From a phage: a DNA stretch of 46,837 nucleotides. The notes beneath the pieces were generated by a model that saw nothing but the letters and a program-made list of their open reading frames with translations, was not told the DNA's origin and did no database searches. Below are positions 5,898-46,837 of the stretch, in pieces; position 1 is the first letter of the stretch; each line of letters begins with the position of its first letter. The stretch lies in the sequence record PZ502447.1; one strand, 5' to 3'. The position numbers and the translations under genes are program-made.

Positions 5898-6626
5898 TTA
5901 TGACTCCCAATCCGGCACAGCCCAACAACGACAGCCGTATTCCTGACCAGGGAAGAGATCGTTACCGCCCAACCTGAAGCTTAGGCTCTCTTTCTTGAAA
6001 TGGGTCATTCGCTCCCTTTCATCAAGCATGCCGTGCCAAATGTAATGGGTAACACCAGCATCCTCTAGCCTCCTGCGCATGAACGTAGAGTTAATACTGG
6101 ACGTGATGCCTGAGGCTATATTAGCAGTTCTCTTGCGGTAAATCTTGTACCTTTCGTTAATCTTAAGGTAGTCACCACTCTGTATGATTGATGCAGACTG
6201 AATAAAGTCGTCCTTGATATTGTTGAGTAACTTTTCAACGGACTTATTTGATGTGTAAAGCCACTGGTTTAAATCCGGCTGATACCAATCTTCATCTCCA
6301 TTTATACCGTTAAGTCTCAAGTCCATAACTGACTGGACCGAGCCGCCACCAGTCTTGATTGCCAGCACAAGAAACTGCGATGAATTATACCTGTATATTG
6401 ACGCTCCAATTGCCGGAAGTGTAGCTACAACAGAAGCTATAAGCGCTGCTATGATTGCGTCGAGATAATTATCTTCCTGCTCTAGCTCCTCGGCAGTGTC
6501 AATCTTAAGCCGCGTAGCTGATTCTTTCATTGCAGATATTAGCTCAGTTACCGCAACGCTAAGGTTGCGGTTTACCTGATTCTCAATTGTCTGCGGGTAC
6601 TTCCAGCGGGTCTTCACTGGTTTCAT
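5898..6626 (-). CDS. head morphogenesis protein (Mu F-like / SPP1 gp7-like)
   Basis: 242 aa ORF immediately downstream of portal; C-terminal Cys pair GCRCW typical of F-like minor head proteins. The ORF-track start overlaps the portal 3' end, so the true start may be internal. Confidence 0.55.
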   Translation of the reverse strand: MKPVKTRWKYPQTIENQVNRNLSVAVTELISAMKESATRLKIDTAEELEQEDNYLDAIIAALIASVVATLPAIGASIYRYNSSQFLVLAIKTGGGSVQSVMDLRLNGINGDEDWYQPDLNQWLYTSNKSVEKLLNNIKDDFIQSASIIQSGDYLKINERYKIYRKRTANIASGITSSINSTFMRRRLEDAGVTHYIWHGMLDERERMTHFKKESLSFRLGGNDLFPGQEYGCRCWAVPDWES

Positions 6627-7860
6627 TGATTGTTACCTCTGTCTCAATTGAACCTTCACCAATCTTAACCTCAGGGGCTAATGCGCGCAAGGTATCTCGT
6701 GCTTCGTCTGCATCCATCACGCCGTTAGTGATAAGAGCAGTAATTGAATCAACGTTATTCTTCAGTATTTCAGCGCGGTCTTTCTTCGATTCCTGAGCTA
6801 GAGGGTTAAACTCAACTGACCATTCTTGCTCGGTTGTGACGAACGGGATTAAGAACCCAAGAACTGGAAGTAGCTCTTCGTTACGCTTGCGGTCAATCAA
6901 CTTATGGAATGTCTCTAGCGCTGTGTTTTGGCTTGATGACAACCCGCCAACGTTACGACCTTTGAGAATGATTTCATGGATACCGCTCAGAGCAACAATT
7001 CTGTCGAACTTCTTATCGAGGAATCCATCAATCCCACCAATATCCGAGTTAAGAACGCTGTACTCTTCAGCTTCAGCGTCGATACCAATCGCGCGACCAA
7101 CGCCAGAGTTATCATCAACCTGGGCAAGCCTCAACCTGGCCGCACCAAAACCTTCCGCGTCGTCACACAGTTCAGCAAGGCCTTTAGCCTTCCACACCGC
7201 CTGCTGCTTGCGGCGCAATAACTGAGTTGCCAGTTTCTCACACGTCTGATAATCCTTGATTGATTCAAGCAGGTCAGGAACCAGAACGCTAGCACCCCAC
7301 CCGTCATTACCGCGACGCAATGAACTAGGAATCTTCTCGCCATCCATAATGTGAACTCGCGAGTAGTGCACATCATAAAACATGGCGCCACCTTCTGGCG
7401 TGATGCGGTACGTTAATGGCTTACCGAATCGCACATTGCGAGGGTTTTCCTCCTTAGTCTGAACTCTTACCTGGCTACGCTCATAAACGCGAAGTGATTC
7501 AAGTTCCGCGCCTTCACGTACCGGGCTAGTTAGCGCACGATTGTCCTTAACGATAGCCACAATTGCAGAGCCGCCAAATAACCTCGCCCATGACCATGCG
7601 TCAGAGATTGACTCGTTAACCTTCAGGTAATCCCACCTGGACCAGAATTCACCTTCGTCATCAATACCATCGATATGGAAACCTGCGGCGATTGCTGTCT
7701 CCGGTATGGTGTCGACGATGCGGCGTACAATTGAGTTTGATGCGTACAGTGAATCAGCGAAAGGAGGTGTAAGATACGTGTTGCCAAAGTGCCCGTAAAT
7801 CTCGCTACCATCACTGGAGCCACCAAGAAATTGCGTGGCGTATGAATCTGCTTTTACCAT
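6583..7860 (-). CDS. portal protein
   Basis: About 425 aa ORF downstream of the terminase large subunit; start moved to ATG MVKADSY (GGAG SD) because the ORF-track start lies inside the upstream terminator hairpin. Confidence 0.75.
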   Translation of the reverse strand: MVKADSYATQFLGGSSDGSEIYGHFGNTYLTPPFADSLYASNSIVRRIVDTIPETAIAAGFHIDGIDDEGEFWSRWDYLKVNESISDAWSWARLFGGSAIVAIVKDNRALTSPVREGAELESLRVYERSQVRVQTKEENPRNVRFGKPLTYRITPEGGAMFYDVHYSRVHIMDGEKIPSSLRRGNDGWGASVLVPDLLESIKDYQTCEKLATQLLRRKQQAVWKAKGLAELCDDAEGFGAARLRLAQVDDNSGVGRAIGIDAEAEEYSVLNSDIGGIDGFLDKKFDRIVALSGIHEIILKGRNVGGLSSSQNTALETFHKLIDRKRNEELLPVLGFLIPFVTTEQEWSVEFNPLAQESKKDRAEILKNNVDSITALITNGVMDADEARDTLRALAPEVKIGEGSIETEVTINETSEDPLEVPADN

Positions 7861-7872
7861 TTTATTTGCTCC

Positions 7873-7896
7873 AATAAAAAGCCCCATTTAGGGGCT
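7873..7896 (-). terminator. intrinsic terminator after inserted gene
   Basis: Minus-strand hairpin GCCCC-UAAAU-GGGGC followed by a U5 run, 3' of ORF 7919..8272. Confidence 0.55.
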
Positions 7897-7918
7897 TAGT
7901 TTAGCATAGCTTTTATGG

Positions 7919-8272
7919 TTACTCGAATTTTACTTCGAACTTGATTGATGATGTTTTCACTCCATTAAGTGTTAACTGGCGAACCTCCCTTCTGACTTCA
8001 TAAAATGCCTCTTTAGTTACTATGTCTTTGTTGATGAAGTATTTAATCCCAGCCTTTTCAACTTTAAAATTATCACCTTTAACGACAAAATCGGTAGGCT
8101 CTATAACTTCGAAATCATAAACACTAAGATTAATTACGCCCAAATAGCCTTTATCATCCTTAACTTTGACGTATTCATTATTACTTCCAGGCGTTCTTGA
8201 TAAGTCATAAATCTTACCAACGGTAAAATCAAAATAACCAGCTTTTTTATACCCTTTAAATACTGCTTTCAT
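7919..8272 (-). CDS. hypothetical protein (moron-like insert between terminase and portal)
   Basis: 117 aa AT-rich ORF with its own upstream promoter module and downstream terminator; Lys/Val/Phe-rich, predicted beta-rich. Confidence 0.6.
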   Translation of the reverse strand: MKAVFKGYKKAGYFDFTVGKIYDLSRTPGSNNEYVKVKDDKGYLGVINLSVYDFEVIEPTDFVVKGDNFKVEKAGIKYFINKDIVTKEAFYEVRREVRQLTLNGVKTSSIKFEVKFE

Positions 8273-8300
8273 TTTTTACTCCTCTCGTTTTCGTGAAGTA

Positions 8301-8347
8301 ACTATAAGCCATCCTTGGCGGCGCGTCTTTAGCAAAACGTGCTATTT
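8301..8347 (-). promoter_or_regulatory. conserved promoter module (inverted-repeat motif plus -10-like TATAGT)
   Basis: Minus-strand AATAGCACGTTTTGCTAAAGAC, then about 22 nt, then TTATAGT, then leader ACGAAAACGAGAGG, then ATG of 7919..8272; overlaps the terminase large subunit stop. Confidence 0.5.
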
Positions 8348-9913
8348 GATGCCAGCGAGGCGCATCATCCTCGATTTAGGGTCTTCTGCAATGTTCAGTA
8401 CCAGGTTGACAGCCATTGTCAAACAGTCTATCTGGTCATCGTGAACATGTGAATCATCTGCCGTGAATGCCGCAATCTCCGTTAGCAAGCCATTAAGCCA
8501 AGTAGCAGACTCCGGAAGGATTACGTTACCAGCTTTAATCTGCGGCAATGCACTCATTACGCGAGTCAGCTTATCGTTATCCGGAACGTACGGCTCGATA
8601 GGCGTTCGCATAACCCTTCCGGCTGATTGAATCAGGCCAATACCAGAGGCTTTCTTCTCGATGATGATTTTACGAAGGATGCCATCTATCTGATTGGATG
8701 CCCTAGCCATCTTCTCGAAATCCAATAACTCAGCCTCTAGCTCAGGCGCTTCCCATTTACCACGGCGCTGGTCCAACAGGTAAATTTTACCATCCTTATA
8801 GCCCCAGAGTTGCAATACGCTAAAGTCACTGTATGACTTTGTTGTCATTGCGGTATCAAGTGTCATGAATCTGTAGTCGTATTTAGCTGGCGGTCGCAGG
8901 GTGTCACTAATGCGCTGGAACCAGTCTACGTTAATCAGGTTGCCGCCTAGGGCTATTGGCTGTTGAAGGTATTGACTAAGAAACGTGTATGGGTCGGCGT
9001 CCTTCATTGCCATCAAGTCGTGAACTGATTCCTTTGCTGGGAAGTAGCTGTAATACTTCACGCCGTCACGCTCAATGTATTCGCTTGATAGAACGTCATC
9101 AATGAATTGCTGCTTAATCCAGTCAGGAAGAGTGTCGACATAATCCTCAGTAACGAGTGCTGGAACCTTAACTACGTCAAACTTAATCCCCATACCGCCG
9201 GATTCCATAAAATTGCTGGTATCAAGAACGTGCAACCTCTGCTGAACGGCGATAATTGGTGTTTCATGCCCCTTAACGGAACTTGCTCTACGTGAGCGAA
9301 TCGTGTTCTTTAGAAGCATATTAACAGCCTCCCTCCTTACATTACTAAGCGCATCATCTGGCTTCAGCGGGTCATCAAGCATTATGCATCCACTGTAATC
9401 ATCGGTCATGTAACCACCACGTGAACCAGTCACCTGGCCAGCCATTGCCTTAGATATCGATTCAAACCTCACCTTTCCATCTTCATCTAGAACCTGAATT
9501 TCGTCATCCCTACATGTGCCAAACTTGCAAGGCCATAACTCCTGAAACTCCTTTGACTTAATGAGGTCGCGTACTCTCTTTGAGTTTCGCTTAACCAATG
9601 AGTCAGAGAACGACAAACTAAGGTTTCTAACCTTCTTAATCTTGATCATGCTATATACAGGGAAATGTATGCTAAAGAGTTCGGTTTTGGCTGATCCAGG
9701 AGCTACGTTTATGATGGTATCCTTTCTCTTACCCTCAAGAATCTCATCTATGACACGACAAAGGTATTTAGCATGCCAATTCATTTTGAATCTCTCGCCT
9801 TGCGTTATCTGAAAGAAGCACCGCAAGAACCCTTCGAAACTATGCTCAGCGATTGCCTTTATAGCCATCTTTTCAGCGTGAGTTAGTTCATCCCAGACTA
9901 TTAATTCACTCAT
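8342..9913 (-). CDS. terL: terminase large subunit
   Basis: 523 aa; Walker A-like VAPGSAKT near the N-terminus; ATG start 2 nt after the upstream HNH stop; followed by the portal block. Confidence 0.85.
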   Translation of the reverse strand: MSELIVWDELTHAEKMAIKAIAEHSFEGFLRCFFQITQGERFKMNWHAKYLCRVIDEILEGKRKDTIINVAPGSAKTELFSIHFPVYSMIKIKKVRNLSLSFSDSLVKRNSKRVRDLIKSKEFQELWPCKFGTCRDDEIQVLDEDGKVRFESISKAMAGQVTGSRGGYMTDDYSGCIMLDDPLKPDDALSNVRREAVNMLLKNTIRSRRASSVKGHETPIIAVQQRLHVLDTSNFMESGGMGIKFDVVKVPALVTEDYVDTLPDWIKQQFIDDVLSSEYIERDGVKYYSYFPAKESVHDLMAMKDADPYTFLSQYLQQPIALGGNLINVDWFQRISDTLRPPAKYDYRFMTLDTAMTTKSYSDFSVLQLWGYKDGKIYLLDQRRGKWEAPELEAELLDFEKMARASNQIDGILRKIIIEKKASGIGLIQSAGRVMRTPIEPYVPDNDKLTRVMSALPQIKAGNVILPESATWLNGLLTEIAAFTADDSHVHDDQIDCLTMAVNLVLNIAEDPKSRMMRLAGIK

Positions 9914-9915
9914 TG

Positions 9916-10422
9916 TTACGCTCTCGTATTTGGGTAGCCTTTATTTTCAGAGCCATGATTTTCATGATATCCGTTCAATTTGTCATACTGTGACCTTGCC
10001 AATGCAGCCTCCTCTATAGTGTCCTTGTAGCATATGAAGACTGTTTTACCAAACTCCATAGCCTGAACAAGCCATCTATTCTCTCTTTTGCACCAGCTTA
10101 CACCGTTTATTCCGCTTTTATTTCTTGATGATAGTGATCTGTTATTTGAGTTCTCTTTATTGCTTACTAACCTTAGGTTCTCTATTCTATTGTCACTTCT
10201 ATTTTGGTTTATGTGATCTATGTACATGCCTTTAGGGATTGATCCATTGTGCATCTCCCACACCACCCTGTGACACCTGTATGCTTTTTGTCTATACTTT
10301 AGTATCACATAGCCAAATTTATCAACTCTTCCAGCCACCTCTCCAACCTTTGATACATTTGCTACTTTTACCTTTCTTATTAAAAGCCCGTCTCTATATT
10401 CAAAAATATCATGCCAATTCAT
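9916..10422 (-). CDS. HNH homing endonuclease (AP2-HNH type)
   Basis: 168 aa; HNH core IDHINQNRSDNRIENLR; N-terminus MNWHDIFEYRDG shared with the HNH at 28006; strongly AT-rich; inserted between the terminase subunit genes. Confidence 0.85.
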   Translation of the reverse strand: MNWHDIFEYRDGLLIRKVKVANVSKVGEVAGRVDKFGYVILKYRQKAYRCHRVVWEMHNGSIPKGMYIDHINQNRSDNRIENLRLVSNKENSNNRSLSSRNKSGINGVSWCKRENRWLVQAMEFGKTVFICYKDTIEEAALARSQYDKLNGYHENHGSENKGYPNTRA

Positions 10423-10618
10423 ATCGTCACCTCGTTAAGTTAGTGCCAATTATCTCATTGATTGGGCCGATTCCTTTAACAAAAAGTGCTAAATTAGCCA
10501 TAATTTCACCAATCCAACCATCACGCCAATTAAGAATCCAGTTGTGAAGCACATTGACGCTATCATGTAATATCCCAATAAAGCCTTAATAACTTTTATC
10601 ATACCGACCCCTATGTTC

Positions 10619-11143
10619 TTACAGCTTACCAATCACAGACTCAAGCGCTTCCTTCATCGTATCTACGTCGTTAGCTGAAGAGTTGTTGCTGATAGTAATC
10701 TCCTGCGGCTTGTCGATTCCAAGCTCTTTGGAAATCATGCCCGGGTTAACGATGCCAGATGCAGCCAACTGATATTTCTGCTCACGAATCACTGAATCAA
10801 TGAACGCAATCACCTCATCATAACCAGCAGACTTTCGCCATTTCTCGATGGCGCCATGGGTAACACCGCAGTAAAGGCAGAAACCTGTTAGCGTGAAGAC
10901 TCGCGGCTTATGCACCAGGCTCTCGGTCACTACACCCTGGAAGCTAGCCGTCTCAATTGCCTTGATCGCCTGACTCTCTGCCCATGAGAAGTATTTCACA
11001 GCCAGGTCAAATAGCTGCTCTGGTGTCATGATTCGGTTTTTGGCTAGCGTTGTAATGTCTGAGTACTTTTTATTGTACATGGCTTTAAAGTTGCCAGAGC
11101 GGACCTTTTCTTGCGCCTGACTGGTGAAGTTTTCGTCTTTCAT
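10619..11143 (-). CDS. terS: terminase small subunit
   Basis: 174 aa, ATG with GGAGG SD; helix-turn-helix-like segment FTLTGFCLYCGVTHGAIEKW resembling small-terminase DNA-binding domains; located upstream of the terminase large subunit. Confidence 0.6.
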   Translation of the reverse strand: MKDENFTSQAQEKVRSGNFKAMYNKKYSDITTLAKNRIMTPEQLFDLAVKYFSWAESQAIKAIETASFQGVVTESLVHKPRVFTLTGFCLYCGVTHGAIEKWRKSAGYDEVIAFIDSVIREQKYQLAASGIVNPGMISKELGIDKPQEITISNNSSANDVDTMKEALESVIGKL

Positions 11144-11680: not shown

Positions 11681-11756
11681 TGGTGTTCCGCACTGGACTC
11701 GAACCAGTAACTAAGACTTAGGAGGTCTTTGCGTTATCCTGTTACGCCAGCAGAAC
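11681..11756 (-). tRNA. tRNA-Arg (anticodon CCU)
   Basis: 76 nt on minus strand folds as a cloverleaf: acceptor GUUCUGC/GCGGAAC (one G-U), U8, D-stem GCGU/ACGC with GG in the D-loop, anticodon stem AAGAC/GUCUU, loop CUCCUAA (U33, CCU, A37), T-arm ACUGG-UUCGAGU-CCAGU, discriminator A, encoded CCA. Confidence 0.8.
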
Positions 11757-11944: not shown

Positions 11945-12145
11945 TCAACTTACTCTTTCGAATTTCCCATAATTCTGGTCATACGGGTAGTCAATGCTCA
12001 CCAATTCGCCATTATCGCTGTAGCAGAATACGTGGCCAGTCTTCGATACCTTTTCGACCTGGTAATCGCATCCATCCATGAAGTCATCCGATGCCGCCTT
12101 TGTGCACTTGATAGCATCGCCTTTCTTAATAATTTTATTCATCAA
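11945..12145 (-). CDS. hypothetical protein
   Basis: 66 aa ORF; start overlaps the upstream stop (ATGA). Confidence 0.45.
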   Translation of the reverse strand: MMNKIIKKGDAIKCTKAASDDFMDGCDYQVEKVSKTGHVFCYSDNGELVSIDYPYDQNYGKFERVS

Positions 12146-12348
12146 AACTCCTCAGTTATAAGCATCTTGCCACAATCTTTGCACTCGTAGAACGCACATG
12201 TTTCACCTATTGATACAATTGGTTTTGTTGACTCGTGGTATGCAGAGCTTATCGCCTTAATGTCAAAATCGTTAATGATTGATGTGAACACGTAAATGTA
12301 ATGATGTTTGTGATTATTGTCGTTATCACTCATAAAGGCTATTCCCAT
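12142..12348 (-). CDS. hypothetical protein
   Basis: 68 aa ORF, Cys-rich C-terminus (CAFYECKDCGK); its first 8 codons and RBS are duplicated at 12454-12485. Confidence 0.45.
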   Translation of the reverse strand: MGIAFMSDNDNNHKHHYIYVFTSIINDFDIKAISSAYHESTKPIVSIGETCAFYECKDCGKMLITEEF

Positions 12349-12357
12349 TCTCTAACC

Positions 12358-12473
12358 TAATTCAATGTAAATATGAAGAAAATCATCCCAATTGCCGTAG
12401 CCATAGCCAATCCGATGGCGATCAGAGTTAGTACTAAATCAATGATAATATCACTCATAAAGGCTATTCCCAT
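12358..12473 (-). CDS. small hydrophobic protein (38 aa, predicted membrane)
   Basis: Hand-translated ORF MGIAFMSDIIIDLVLTLIAIGLAMATAIGMIFFIFTLN, below the ORF-track size cutoff; shares its start module with 12142..12348. Confidence 0.35.
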
Positions 12474-12687
12474 TCTCATCATGACCCACACGCCCTCGAC
12501 GATAGCCCGCTATCCACACAAACTTATCACGTGCGATTATCGTGGATACCGGCCCCCATATCTGAGTGATAAGCGCCGCAACAACCTTATCATCTTTCTT
12601 TTTTGCGCCCAATTTGCCGTATTCGTCATTCAGCTTGTCAGCCTGTCGCTTAACTGCGTTAAAGTATGCGTCGTCTAACCCGAACAT
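12451..12687 (-). CDS. hypothetical protein
   Basis: 78 aa ORF, ATG with GAGAGG SD located in a conserved leader downstream of a promoter module. Confidence 0.5.
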   Translation of the reverse strand: MFGLDDAYFNAVKRQADKLNDEYGKLGAKKKDDKVVAALITQIWGPVSTIIARDKFVWIAGYRRGRVGHDENGNSLYE

Positions 12688-17150: not shown

Positions 17151-17314
17151 TGCTTTTACCATCTGAGATAAACTATTTCGATCTGGAAATAATTAGTGCT
17201 TACAGCGGAAAGGGTTGGCCTTGCGGGGACTGGTTTAACGAGGACCTGCTTGAGTCTCACGAGATTATGTTGAAGGCAATTGAGAAGGCCAGAAAAAATA
17301 GCACTAATTGCTAA
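17150..17314 (+). CDS. hypothetical small protein (54 aa)
   Basis: Hand-translated ORF MLLPSEINYFDLEIISAYSGKGWPCGDWFNEDLLESHEIMLKAIEKARKNSTNC; its stop lies inside the promoter motif. Confidence 0.35.
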   Translation: MLLPSEINYFDLEIISAYSGKGWPCGDWFNEDLLESHEIMLKAIEKARKNSTNC

Positions 17315-17373
17315 AACTCACCGCCACGGATGGCGTATATTTACTCCATCGAAACGAAAGAGAGCAAGAGATC
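17297..17373 (+). promoter_or_regulatory. conserved promoter module
   Basis: AATAGCACTAATTGCTAAAAC, 22 nt, TATATT, then leader CCATCGAAACGAAAGAGAG, then ATG at 17374. Confidence 0.55.
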
Positions 17374-21268: not shown

Positions 21269-21298
21269 CGCATGCAAATCTATGTTTTTGATGTGTTA

Positions 21299-21469
21299 AT
21301 CTGCGATAATAAATTCCACCAAAGAGCCATCAATCGGCGCAAGGATGTGAGTCATATCGTCACCGTAAACTTTGTAGTAACCGTCACCTAGAGACTCTGC
21401 GCTGTACGGCTGGTTTTCGGTGAACGGCAGTGTCTTTGAGTTGTTTTTAACGCAGTATAATTTAGTCAT
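21299..21469 (-). CDS. hypothetical small protein (57 aa)
   Basis: Hand-translated ORF MTKLYCVKNNSKTLPFTENQPYSAESLGDGYYKVYGDDMTHILAPIDGSLVEFIIAD with AGAGGA SD; lies between a promoter module and a terminator. Confidence 0.45.
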
Positions 21470-21540
21470 TTTTGAATCCTCTGTTGTTTTCGATGTAGTA
21501 ATTATGCCGGATTACTCCGGCGATTGTTTAGCAATTCGTG
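21470..21540 (-). promoter_or_regulatory. conserved promoter module
   Basis: Minus-strand AATAGCACGAATTGCTAAAC, then CATAAT, then leader CATCGAAAACAACAGAGGA, then ATG of 21299..21469. Confidence 0.55.
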
Positions 21541-22088
21541 CTATTTATTACGTGCATTACCAAAGCAGAGGTTCCATCAATATCACCATCTACAACATGA
21601 ACGTCAATTTCTCTTGCGCAGACACCGCGAATGTAGGAGCGGCTATCTCCATCAAAAGTATAGCCAGGCCTAAAAAGTCTAATCAAAGTAACTTCAACCC
21701 CTGAATCAATGAGAGTATTAATCTCGCTAGCGAAGCCACCATCAGCACAGATATAGCAACCATCACCAAGTGATTGCGCTAGCCTTTTACCGAAAACATC
21801 ATCACCAAAGACTGGCTTCATAACTGACTCACTAATCCAAATCATAAATTCACGAACCGTCATTCCACCAAGAAATTCATGTGGTGATTCTTTGTACTCT
21901 CGGTCATCGTAATTCTTAATAAATTCATCAAACTCATCGCTTGATAGTATTCCTTTTGCAACATTAAACATTGGTGACTTGAATGAAACCTTATCCTTGC
22001 AAATTCCAAGATTAACAATGATATCTGCAACTGTATCTTTTCCAGCACCAGGGGGTGCATTAAGGATGATTAACTTTTTCATTTTCAC
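21528..22088 (-). CDS. deoxynucleoside monophosphate kinase-like P-loop kinase
   Basis: 186 aa; P-loop NAPPGAGKDT and overall resemblance to T4 gp1 dNMP kinase (GKDT..AD, RPG motifs). Could alternatively be a polynucleotide kinase domain. Confidence 0.55.
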   Translation of the reverse strand: MKMKKLIILNAPPGAGKDTVADIIVNLGICKDKVSFKSPMFNVAKGILSSDEFDEFIKNYDDREYKESPHEFLGGMTVREFMIWISESVMKPVFGDDVFGKRLAQSLGDGCYICADGGFASEINTLIDSGVEVTLIRLFRPGYTFDGDSRSYIRGVCAREIDVHVVDGDIDGTSALVMHVINSTNC

Positions 22089-24695: not shown

Positions 24696-24890
24696 TTATA
24701 CCTCATCAAATTTTTCGCCGAATTCGTTTTTAACAGTTTCCAGATCATATTTGTAAGTTGGGCTAACTTCGAATGCATATGTGCAGTCTTCAATGTCAAC
24801 CAAAACATAACCATCTTCAGTTACTTGCATCTCGTAGATGTAGCCAGTCTTGCGTGATTCGTAGAATTTACCAGTATAGATAGTAGCCAT
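24696..24890 (-). CDS. hypothetical protein
   Basis: 64 aa ORF directly downstream of a full promoter module and conserved leader. Confidence 0.5.
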   Translation of the reverse strand: MATIYTGKFYESRKTGYIYEMQVTEDGYVLVDIEDCTYAFEVSPTYKYDLETVKNEFGEKFDEV

Positions 24891-24974
24891 TTTCTTTCTC
24901 TCTTTGTGTGTTTCGTTTCGATGAGTTTATAATACACCAACTCACCAATTCGTCTTTAGCAATTCGTGCTATTT
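24891..24974 (-). promoter_or_regulatory. conserved promoter module
   Basis: Minus-strand AATAGCACGAATTGCTAAAGAC, 22 nt, TATTAT, then leader CATCGAAACGAAACACACAAAGAGAG, then ATG at 24890. Confidence 0.55.
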
Positions 24975-33660: not shown

Positions 33661-33737
33661 TCCCCATCTCTCTTTCGTTTCGATGGGGTAATGATACCCC
33701 ACCTGTTAATTTTGTCTTTAGCAATTAGTGCTATTTT
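33661..33737 (-). promoter_or_regulatory. conserved promoter module for recombination genes
   Basis: Minus-strand AATAGCACTAATTGCTAAAGAC, 22 nt, TATCAT, then leader CCCATCGAAACGAAAGAGAG, then ATG of erf; overlaps the exonuclease 3' end. Confidence 0.55.
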
Positions 33738-42428: not shown

Positions 42429-42466
42429 ATTCTCTCCAATAAAAAAAGGCCCACATGAGCCTTAGT

Positions 42467-46169: not shown

Positions 46170-46484
46170 TTAGTTTTTTACTCGCTGACCTGCTAGCGCT
46201 TTCATGTAGCTATCCATCAGTGATGGAACGGCACCAGGGAAAAGGTTGGCAAACTCATCTACGTTCTCATCGGTAAATGGTTCTTCTAAATCCCAGTCAG
46301 AGCAGATTTCGTTAATCAATTCTTTAGTGCTGAAGTTTTCACGATTAAGAATCTCCTGAAGTTCAGATGATTTCTTGTGCTTAACTGTTAGTACCACCTC
46401 TGCATCTTCACCATTCGCTAACTGAAACTTAACCGGAAGTTTAAAGTCAGGCAGCGCCTTAAGTGAAAGTTTAAATTTTGCCAT
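46170..46484 (-). CDS. tail assembly chaperone (lambda G-like)
   Basis: 104 aa acidic protein immediately upstream of the tape measure region; ends ...GQRVKN with slippery heptamer A_AAA_AAC spanning the last two codons. Confidence 0.7.
   Translation of the reverse strand: MAKFKLSLKALPDFKLPVKFQLANGEDAEVVLTVKHKKSSELQEILNRENFSTKELINEICSDWDLEEPFTDENVDEFANLFPGAVPSLMDSYMKALAGQRVKN
46173..46179 (-). other. programmed -1 ribosomal frameshift slippery site (A_AAA_AAC)
   Basis: Heptamer AAAAAAC in X_XXY_YYZ register at codons K-N just before the G stop; the -1 frame continues ...KKLKRAVYLQYQSPPTDAELEAIG and merges with ORF 45856..46107. Confidence 0.7.
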
Positions 46485-46519: not shown

Positions 46520-46768
46520 TTACTTTGATTCGTTTTTTACAATGTTGTGAGCAACTTCGGTGCACACTTCACGACCATAGTGCAGAATCTGGTTTGTCTT
46601 ATCGCCAGCTACTTTTTCACAATGCGAGTATGCACTATTAAATTCATGTTCATACTTTATTGCATCAGAGTTTGCGGTTTCGCCACCAGTTGGGTTAACA
46701 ATCTGAATTGCCAGGTAGAAAGCACCAAGAGCAGCAGCAAGTTTGATGATGTTTTTAACGTTGTTCAT
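46520..46768 (-). CDS. hypothetical small membrane/secreted protein
   Basis: 82 aa with N-terminal hydrophobic helix IIKLAAALGAFYLAIQIV; has its own promoter module and sits between the major tail and chaperone genes. Confidence 0.5.
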   Translation of the reverse strand: MNNVKNIIKLAAALGAFYLAIQIVNPTGGETANSDAIKYEHEFNSAYSHCEKVAGDKTNQILHYGREVCTEVAHNIVKNESK

Positions 46769-46783
46769 TTCACTAATATCTCA

Positions 46784-46837
46784 TTTCGTTTCGATGAATG
46801 AACTATACAGCAATCCGCGATTTGGTCTTTAACAAAA
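46784..46837 (-). promoter_or_regulatory. conserved promoter module spanning the window junction
   Basis: Leader CATCGAAACGAAATGAGA at 46784-46800 and TATAGT at 46801-46807; the upstream motif GTCTTTAACAAAAAGTGCTATCAAT is split between 46825-46837 and 1-12. Confidence 0.5.

Follow-up and report, generated by a model that had tools for sequence, protein, structure and literature searches.

A probable accessory gene cassette at the terminase-portal junction of an Rtp-like coliphage

A small AT-rich gene in the packaging operon

T1-like phages are common contaminants in laboratories and industry as well as candidates for phage therapy, yet hardly any studies have dealt with their accessory genes or with how they are regulated. 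We analyzed a phage DNA of 46,837 nucleotides (sequence record PZ502447.1; the whole stretch is called the window below), and in particular a small gene located between the genes of the terminase large subunit (TerL) and of the portal protein, a location that we call the slot. The window belongs to a T1/Rtp-like coliphage of the Drexlerviridae (Braunvirinae, Rtp-like), and as its ends join as one continuous sequence it represents a complete, circularly permuted genome. The initial annotation, made from the sequence alone, had proposed that the small gene is a moron, i.e., an extra gene equipped with its own promoter and its own terminator. As described below, the gene indeed appears to be extra and dispensable, to be foreign in composition and to have its own copy of a promoter module, but the terminator does not belong to it.

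All features of the slot region lie on the minus strand, and their positions agree with those initially assigned (Table 1). The open reading frame (ORF) codes for a 117-residue protein that begins with MKAVFKGYKK and terminates with IKFEVKFE, and it is preceded by a strong ribosome-binding site (RBS), GAGAGGAG. The gene was rightly described as AT-rich: its GC content is 32.8%, and 29.7% at third codon positions, as against GC contents of 43.9% (window), 45.5% (TerL) and 49.1% (portal gene). It thus deviates from its flanking genes (45 to 49% GC), as morons do. Further upstream of TerL are found an HNH endonuclease gene (9916-10422) and then the small terminase gene (TerS; 10619-11143); downstream of the portal gene come a MuF-like gene and a gene for a DUF2213 protease/scaffold. 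The portal protein probably starts at the ATG at 7860, behind GGAG, rather than at 7887.

Table 1. Features of the TerL-portal junction, listed along the minus strand
Feature	Coordinates	Strand	Remarks
TerL	8342-9913	-	Upstream flank; PHROG 38, PF17289
Palindromic box ATAGCACGTTTTGCTAAA (TAGCA-N5-TGCTA)	8328-8345	-	0 mismatches to module; encloses TerL stop TAG 8344-8342
Module spacer	8307-8327	-	Small inverted repeat GCCA-AGGA-TGGC at 8308-8319
-10 hexamer TATAGT	8301-8306	-	23 nt downstream of TTGCTA
Predicted 5' leader ACGAAAACGAGAGGAGTAAAAA	8273-8294	-	Start predicted from sequence near A8294, 7 nt past the -10; RBS 8279-8286
117-residue ORF	7919-8272	-	ATG start; 13.5 kDa, pI 9.1; member of PHROG 14592
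Conserved spacer CCATAAAAGCTATGCTAAACT	7898-7918	-	Includes TAAACTA motif preceding the junction hairpin
Junction unit	7869-7897	-	Hairpin AAGCCCC-TAAAT-GGGGCTT (7879-7897) and TTTTTATTGGAG (7869-7880) with portal RBS
Portal gene	6583-7860	-	Downstream flank; PF06381

With positions 6500-10500 as a query, phage ES matched at 95% over 6645-9199, a segment reaching from the portal gene through the slot gene into the 3' part of TerL, and AN_ECEAS matched at 95% over 6799-9199. TR1-3, Rao1 and CY1 showed approximately 90% identity across 85% of the query.

In phage lambda, A and B are separated by gene W, whose product gpW is an essential and conserved head completion protein. The earlier statement that the slot gene has no counterpart in the lambda order is therefore incorrect as far as position is concerned: like W, it is small and sits between the genes for the terminase large subunit and the portal. 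Unlike W, it is sporadic, and searches of the PDB revealed neither sequence nor fold similarity of its product to gpW.

A promoter module shared by non-structural genes

The 69-nt region between TerL and the ORF reads, on the coding strand, AAATAGCACGTTTTGCTAAA-GACGCGCCGCCAAGGATGGCT-TATAGT-TACTTCACGAAAACGAGAGGAGTAAAAA-ATG. It comprises a perfect copy of a module whose palindrome, ATAGCAC-N3-TTGCTAAA, is centered at about -42, and the overlap of this module with the TerL stop codon had been correctly described. With this copy and its invariant -10 positions, the gene has a promoter of its own at the sequence level, as expected of a moron. No -35 box is present in the module at 16 to 18 nt from the -10 hexamer. 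A canonical sigma-70 promoter was thus rejected for the slot gene, and a generic sigma-70 scan missed the module because it lacks a canonical -35.

The window contains approximately 16 copies of the module with at most two mismatches, which is far from chance (for example, at 8328-8345(-), 17298-17315(+), 21527-21544(-), 24955-24972(-) and 33717-33734(-)). An ORF could be assigned to 13 copies, each of which has the orientation of its ORF and is located 69 to 85 nt upstream of the ORF start. An alignment of 17 modules, 14 from the window together with those of Rtp, locus L007 and phage Bas11, revealed the invariant sequence AGCAC..T.G.TAA, invariant A2 and T6 positions in the -10 hexamer, a fixed spacer of 22 to 23 nt, a near-invariant A 7 nt past the -10, an RBS and a conserved leader box, (C)ATCGAAACGA. 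The stems of the inverted repeat in the spacer vary among relatives yet remain complementary (CGCCA/TGGCG, ACTCA/TGAGT, GCTCA/TGAGC). Over 15 modules the spacer hairpins have a mean z-score of -2.6; that of the slot copy is weak (z -0.2). In some copies the spacer hairpin encloses the -10 hexamer.

The genes that follow the module in the window code for a DNA helicase, a PNK-like phosphatase, Erf, a phage lipoprotein, DUF7244 and DUF7421 proteins and several small proteins without assignment. Head and tail genes are absent from this list, and in the late region only genes that look inserted are preceded by the module. The promoters of TerS and of the major capsid gene are of another, ordinary type and are placed after terminators. 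This promoter class, with its palindrome at about -42 and no -35, thus marks non-structural genes of T1-like phages.

In the Drexlerviridae phage Bas11, the 75 nt in front of gene 54 are organized likewise, with ATAGCACTTTTTGTTAAAA, 22 nt, TATCAT and a CAACAAAACGAAAC leader. Mutations described as "immediately upstream" of that gene are reported to allow escape and to reduce its expression (Zhang et al. 2024, PMC11578894). According to the same article, the native promoter drives production of Gp54-FLAG from pBR322 in uninfected MG1655, and Gp54 is dispensable in laboratory conditions (PMC11578894). By analogy, the module is an early-type promoter used by the host RNA polymerase without phage factors, and the copy at 8273-8345 would be one as well. 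The slot gene is thus probably turned on early. Our literature search found no transcriptome data for T1-like phages.

A fast-evolving family at a variable junction

We compared the junction in 57 IMG/VR loci retrieved via the portal protein, plus phages TR2, ES and Rtp. The synteny comparison that had been proposed as a check of the moron hypothesis showed three states of the slot, which holds a gene of the same family, an HNH homing endonuclease gene, or nothing. The family gene is present in ES, Rtp, IME253, phiEB49, CEB_EC3a and Sd1. An HNH gene follows the module in L007, and a decayed one is found in L017. The slot is empty in L001 (TR2), L004, L008 and L011-L016 (L012 being DTL), where it measures 51 to 52 bp, compared with 481 bp in the window; TerL and the portal gene are adjacent in those relatives, so that the slot gene is extra. 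Its absence from DTL is shared by TR1, TR2, TR3, Rao1 and CY1, which are approximately 90% identical to the window. None of the T1-like loci carries the family gene, and two of them (L036, L056) have an HNH-like ORF at that place. The boundaries between the three states fall within the palindrome on the left and at the TAAACTA-hairpin on the right. Loss through recombination between TGCTAAA repeats was considered and rejected, as the junction sequences, inspected by eye, do not fit this scenario.

Conservation in all relatives, which would have spoken against a moron, was not found. Approximately 36 phage records matched the family when the window protein and Rtp22 were used as queries (copies at tail junctions add at least BEK6), versus 839 records with this type of portal, 135 of which have at least 60% portal identity. 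The presence and absence of the family gene interleave with the TerL and portal clades. The slot copy of phiEB49 (L009 3112-3318) is truncated by an internal stop to 68 residues, i.e., to the N-terminal domain only, and its 3' coding part is still recognizable. A truncated 68-residue version was also observed in ACG-M12, ECH1 and SCS31, representing either natural pseudogenization or a domain-only variant. In Braunvirinae whose slot is empty the palindrome is missing too, which argues that in this group the promoter travels with the gene.

The hairpin downstream of the gene is real and has a good intrinsic-terminator shape, with TTTTTATT directly following it; the 65-nt stretch around it (7861-7925) has a predicted folding energy of -16.5 kcal/mol (z -2.1). 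The initial annotation had taken it for the terminator of the cassette. However, a GC-rich hairpin followed by a T-run and GGAG directly precedes the portal gene in every locus (all 57), whether the slot gene is present or absent, and gene-less relatives have the same hairpin. It therefore belongs to the TerL-portal junction rather than to the insert. No promoter was found in the sequence between the hairpin and the portal start codon, and the hairpin must thus be leaky, or else serve as an RNA-end or stability element. Conservation in the region peaks in the adjacent spacer (7898-7918), with identities of 0.85 to 0.89 to five relatives, and the TAAACTA motif of this spacer recurs at other junctions. 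The window has exactly two occurrences of TTTTTATTGGAG, one at the TerL-portal junction and one at the gpM-gpL junction. The latter junction is empty in the window (42430-42466(-)) and shows a TAAACTAAG-hairpin-TTTTTTTATTGGAG unit as at TerL-portal; in other phages it carries a paralogue of the slot gene.

Members of the family are indeed found at other sites. P0033 and P0034 are encoded at the gpM-gpL junction, and P0039 at the gpL-gpK junction of Bas01 (AugustePiccard), which has a TerL-portal copy too. Copies in the tail operon are also present in ACG-M12, phiEB49 (gp37), JulesPiccard and BEK6. As read in two tail-junction copies, L069 (gpM-gpL) and L068 (gpL-gpK), the architecture matches that of the TerL-portal slot: the preceding gene ends with a stop codon in or adjoining a AAATAGCAC box, and behind the family gene come TAAACTA(A)G, a hairpin and TTTTTTATTGGAG-ATG. 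P0040 and its relatives belong to a run of small ORFs adjoining the DNA ligase gene in 137- to 145-kb E. coli myoviruses (UPEC06, LTH01; rV5-like). The P0040 gene overlaps the preceding ORF and therefore cannot have a promoter module of its own. The copies group by slot and not by phage, indicating that any movement is old. The literature that we searched contains no description of such a multijunction cassette.

The family is tiny: a search of 5.8 billion proteins gave 18 clusters, and one of 1.84 billion representatives gave 26 small proteins. All its members have 100 to 140 residues. The window protein matches the PHROG 14592 profile over its full length with an E-value of 9.3e-29. The first eight residues (MKAVFKGY) and the last ten (SSIKFEVKFE) hardly vary, unlike the variable middle, which contains insertions and deletions. 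Two AlphaFold2 models (pLDDT 83 and 87, pTM 0.46) bear out the beta-rich nature noted initially, with eight strands and one helix. Both predict an SH3-like barrel (residues 1 to 58), a disordered linker (61 to 72) and a beta-beta-alpha-beta domain (76 to 117). Both domains and both termini are intact over some 26 clusters defined at 50% identity. Fold and sequence searches yielded no informative match, only generic SH3 domains and uncharacterized small phage proteins; scans against Pfam, NCBIfam and PADLOC gave no match, and a profile search of the PDB returned nothing below an E-value of 0.45. Most members of the family are acidic (median pI 5.0, net charge -14 to +4), the window copy with its pI of 9.1 being an outlier, and an Sso7d-like DNA-binding protein was rejected on account of this acidity.

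The gene evolves fast. Between Rtp and IME253, the ratio of nonsynonymous to synonymous substitution rates (dN/dS) is 0.62 at a dS of 0.13 for the slot gene, an estimate based on approximately 30 substitutions in this single phage pair, compared with 0.03 at a dS of 0.12 for the portal gene. The slot proteins are 35 to 50% identical, whereas TerL and portal proteins are 75 to 92% identical. In nucleotide comparisons with five relatives, the interior of the gene shows 20 to 50% identity, and its last 30 nt together with the hairpin show 85 to 89%. The C-terminal strand is nevertheless conserved as protein, as seen from synonymous changes in the Sd1 lineage.

A weak link to a described family is that to DUF7244 (PF23896), whose SH3-like fold resembles the one predicted for the slot protein (BFVD match, TM-score of 0.71 on the target). 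Five of 31 slot-family members give weak matches to DUF7244, with a best E-value of 0.0053. The window protein itself does not match the Pfam model at the gathering threshold (0 matches), its hhalign probability is 41%, and DUF7244 proteins lack the C-terminal domain. Conversely, the profile of the slot family weakly matches (E-values of 0.02 to 0.03) three other products of the window, encoded at 21296-21469(-), 24696-24890(-) and approximately 12142-12348(-), all module-driven. The first, preceded by a perfect module, is a full DUF7244 member. These matches point to a possible superfamily of small SH3-like proteins encoded by this phage. The products of 24696-24890 and 21296-21469 were also tested as homologues of Bas11 Gp54 and found not to be homologous.

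Possible role of the cassette and related inserts

We propose that the 117-residue gene is an accessory, moron-like cassette at the TerL-portal junction. Its architecture and accessory status are very likely, and to the whole explanation, transcription and role included, we assign a probability of about 60%. A non-essential cassette would have inserted at this junction in a virulent Rtp/T1-like phage. Its gene would be transcribed from its own module copy (palindrome at about -42, no -35, TATAGT), with a start near 8294, and expressed early together with the module-bearing replication and small accessory genes, unlike the surrounding head genes. Some transcripts would end at the pre-existing hairpin before the portal gene, the remainder reading through into it. 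The two-domain, SH3-like, fast-diversifying family would have settled at the TerL-portal, gpM-gpL and gpL-gpK junctions and crossed into rV5-like myoviruses. A gene that is dispensable, foreign in composition, fast evolving and not tied to one morphogenetic position is not expected to have a core structural role. A family called "virion structural protein" in RefSeq is thus recast as a sporadic, fast-evolving add-on gene with an early-type promoter within late operons. The occupied and empty junctions offer a natural test system for the acquisition of extra genes by phages.

The moron concept was introduced by Juhala, Hendrix and colleagues for lambdoid and HK97-like phages, and Drexlerviridae are virulent. 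Like those morons, the slot gene is an extra gene between its neighbors in a late operon, with its own promoter, a deviant composition and a sporadic distribution. It differs from them in that its phage is virulent and has no prophage expression, that the hairpin following it pre-existed at the junction, outside the insert, and that its family recurs at several junctions. Expression from a prophage, a usual attribute of morons, is probably not applicable here, since the phages are virulent.

The product might act on a host or defense protein, for instance as a counterdefense or host-takeover factor, rather than in virion assembly. We favor this role in view of the type of promoter, the predicted SH3-like fold and the fast evolution, and also because Bas11 Gp54, a precedent, is reported to be bound by the CapRel SJ46 defense protein (PMC11578894); binding to such a protein is nonetheless a tentative proposal. 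Gp54 (PDB 9AXB) differs from the slot protein, being a single-domain protein of 66 residues encoded in the early region and without detectable sequence similarity to it. As small early proteins have yielded counterdefense factors and immune triggers such as Gp54, the slot family provides concrete candidates for screening.

The modules are also reminiscent of the PeSL and PmSL elements of T4-type phages, mobile regulatory cassettes composed of a promoter and a stem-loop that, inside core regions, are attached to "plastic nonessential adaptive genes" (PMC2839356, PMC4122927). In both cases a repeated promoter, stem-loop and RBS motif precedes small non-essential ORFs (approximately 16 copies in the window), and the window modules are located at the boundaries of indels or replacements between close relatives. 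They occur in a different phage family and have an upstream palindrome in place of the -35, and their stem-loop is within the spacer or around the -10, unlike that of PeSL and PmSL, which is upstream of the promoter. The likeness seen here is one of sequence and location. A more speculative and rather doubtful extension of our proposal is that the modules and the TAAACTA-hairpin-TTTTTATTGGAG units form a PeSL-like recombination scaffold, the 117-residue protein being a diversifying counterdefense factor or a Gp54-like immune trigger. Early-expressed accessory genes, namely, those of the SH3-like family, of HNH endonucleases and of an 82-residue membrane protein, would then be dropped into intercistronic junctions of late operons and exchanged with other coliphage families.

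Several observations weigh against an accessory cassette acting outside the virion. RefSeq and PHROG label the family "virion structural protein," one submitter (AN_ECEAS) has named it "putative minor outer capsid protein," and most copies are within structural operons. A virion partner could dock onto the invariant N- and C-terminal strands. In addition, the high dN/dS comes from few substitutions, the accessible text of PMC11578894 does not state the extent of the Bas11 "native promoter" construct, and T1-like phages keep the palindrome and a TATAAT at the end of TerL with no gene behind them, so that the promoter could be an ancestral one internal to the operon and lie outside the insert.

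The first group of observations would be explained if the product were a dispensable virion-associated protein, such as a decoration or cementing factor of the head or portal, whose own promoter raises its amount over that of its packaging neighbors. The location of the gene between TerL and portal and of paralogues between tail-tip genes fits this proposal, as do the structural labels, the terminal beta-strands kept as protein, and the variable middle, a possible exposed surface. No experiment could be traced behind the RefSeq label, however, and the original GenBank records all read "hypothetical." Mass spectrometry of the virions of JK06-like phages and of Rogue1, which sampled gel bands only, does not list the protein (Niu 2014, Kropinski 2012; PMC4070988, PMC3496638). 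Neither Chibeu 2012 nor the DTL paper, considered as possible sources of the label, includes mass spectrometry. Furthermore, the family occurs at three unrelated junctions and in a non-structural cluster of rV5-like phages, its presence does not follow the portal or TerL clades, its promoter class is that of non-structural genes, and its fold is unlike that of any known decoration or connector protein. A virion-associated role is therefore improbable, even though it is the strongest competitor of an accessory cassette.

Somewhat less probable still is that the function resides in the promoter, which would boost transcription of the portal and head genes from within the operon, with the ORF as a passenger or decaying selfish DNA that does little itself. 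In T1-like loci (L018-L039 and others), AAATAGCACGAATTGCTAAA is located at the TerL stop and followed by 8 nt, TATAAT and directly the portal hairpin, which represents either what is left of a lost cassette or promoter elements arranged in another way. This conserved gene-less palindrome, the lack of another promoter for the portal gene, the frequent loss of the slot gene, its truncation in the phiEB49 lineage and its high dN/dS are consistent with a booster. Conversely, a passenger would hardly have kept its two domains and its termini across so many divergent clusters, with purifying selection seen at the C terminus, or have persisted in several slots and two phage families, and the empty-slot Braunvirinae are without the palindrome as well.

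Homing-endonuclease traffic, whereby the cassette would occupy and destroy a junction targeted by free-standing HNH genes or would have arrived with one, is the weakest explanation: HNH genes do occur behind the module in the slots of L007 and L017, as HNH-like ORFs in T1-like L036 and L056, with a module between TerS and TerL in the window, and next to the gpM-gpL copy, but this co-occurrence is loose, the 117-residue protein has neither nuclease motif nor nuclease fold, no cleavage site is known, and the rV5-like copies have no HNH neighbor.

Two other inserts driven by the module are found in the late region of the window. The HNH (PF13392) endonuclease gene on the minus strand between TerS and TerL has a GC content of 37.7% and a module at 10475-10492(-) with two mismatches, and it resembles a further cassette inserted among the packaging genes. 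The other, and thus the third such insert among late genes, codes for an 82-residue protein with a hydrophobic N terminus (46520-46768(-), PHROG 22925) and is located between the genes of the major tail protein (40-717) and the tail chaperone (46170-46484). Its module (46784-46837) continues into positions 1-9, across the ends of the window, and a terminator is found at 14-40. A phage lipoprotein gene (PF24052; 35641-35886(+)) with a lipobox-like N terminus lies behind a module copy and may be of the superinfection-exclusion type. The MuF-like head morphogenesis gene (5898-6626(-)), between the portal and DUF2213 protease genes, is also variable, since the protease gene directly follows the portal gene in ES (95% identical to the window over the neighboring portal/TerL segment) and TR2 (approximately 90% identical).

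Among minor features, two pairs of AT-rich direct repeats, 16136-16222/35391-35477 (76% identical) and 15965-16017/35211-35263 (74% identical), are approximately 19 kb apart, rich in TATATA/ATAATAATAATA runs, and adjoin regions of divergent transcription. A perfect 29-nt direct repeat (12324-12352 and 12449-12477, 125 nt apart) is found in a region of small genes. The only Rfam match in the window is a tRNA-Arg (anticodon CCT; 11681-11756(-)), a tRNA reported for other T1-like phages.

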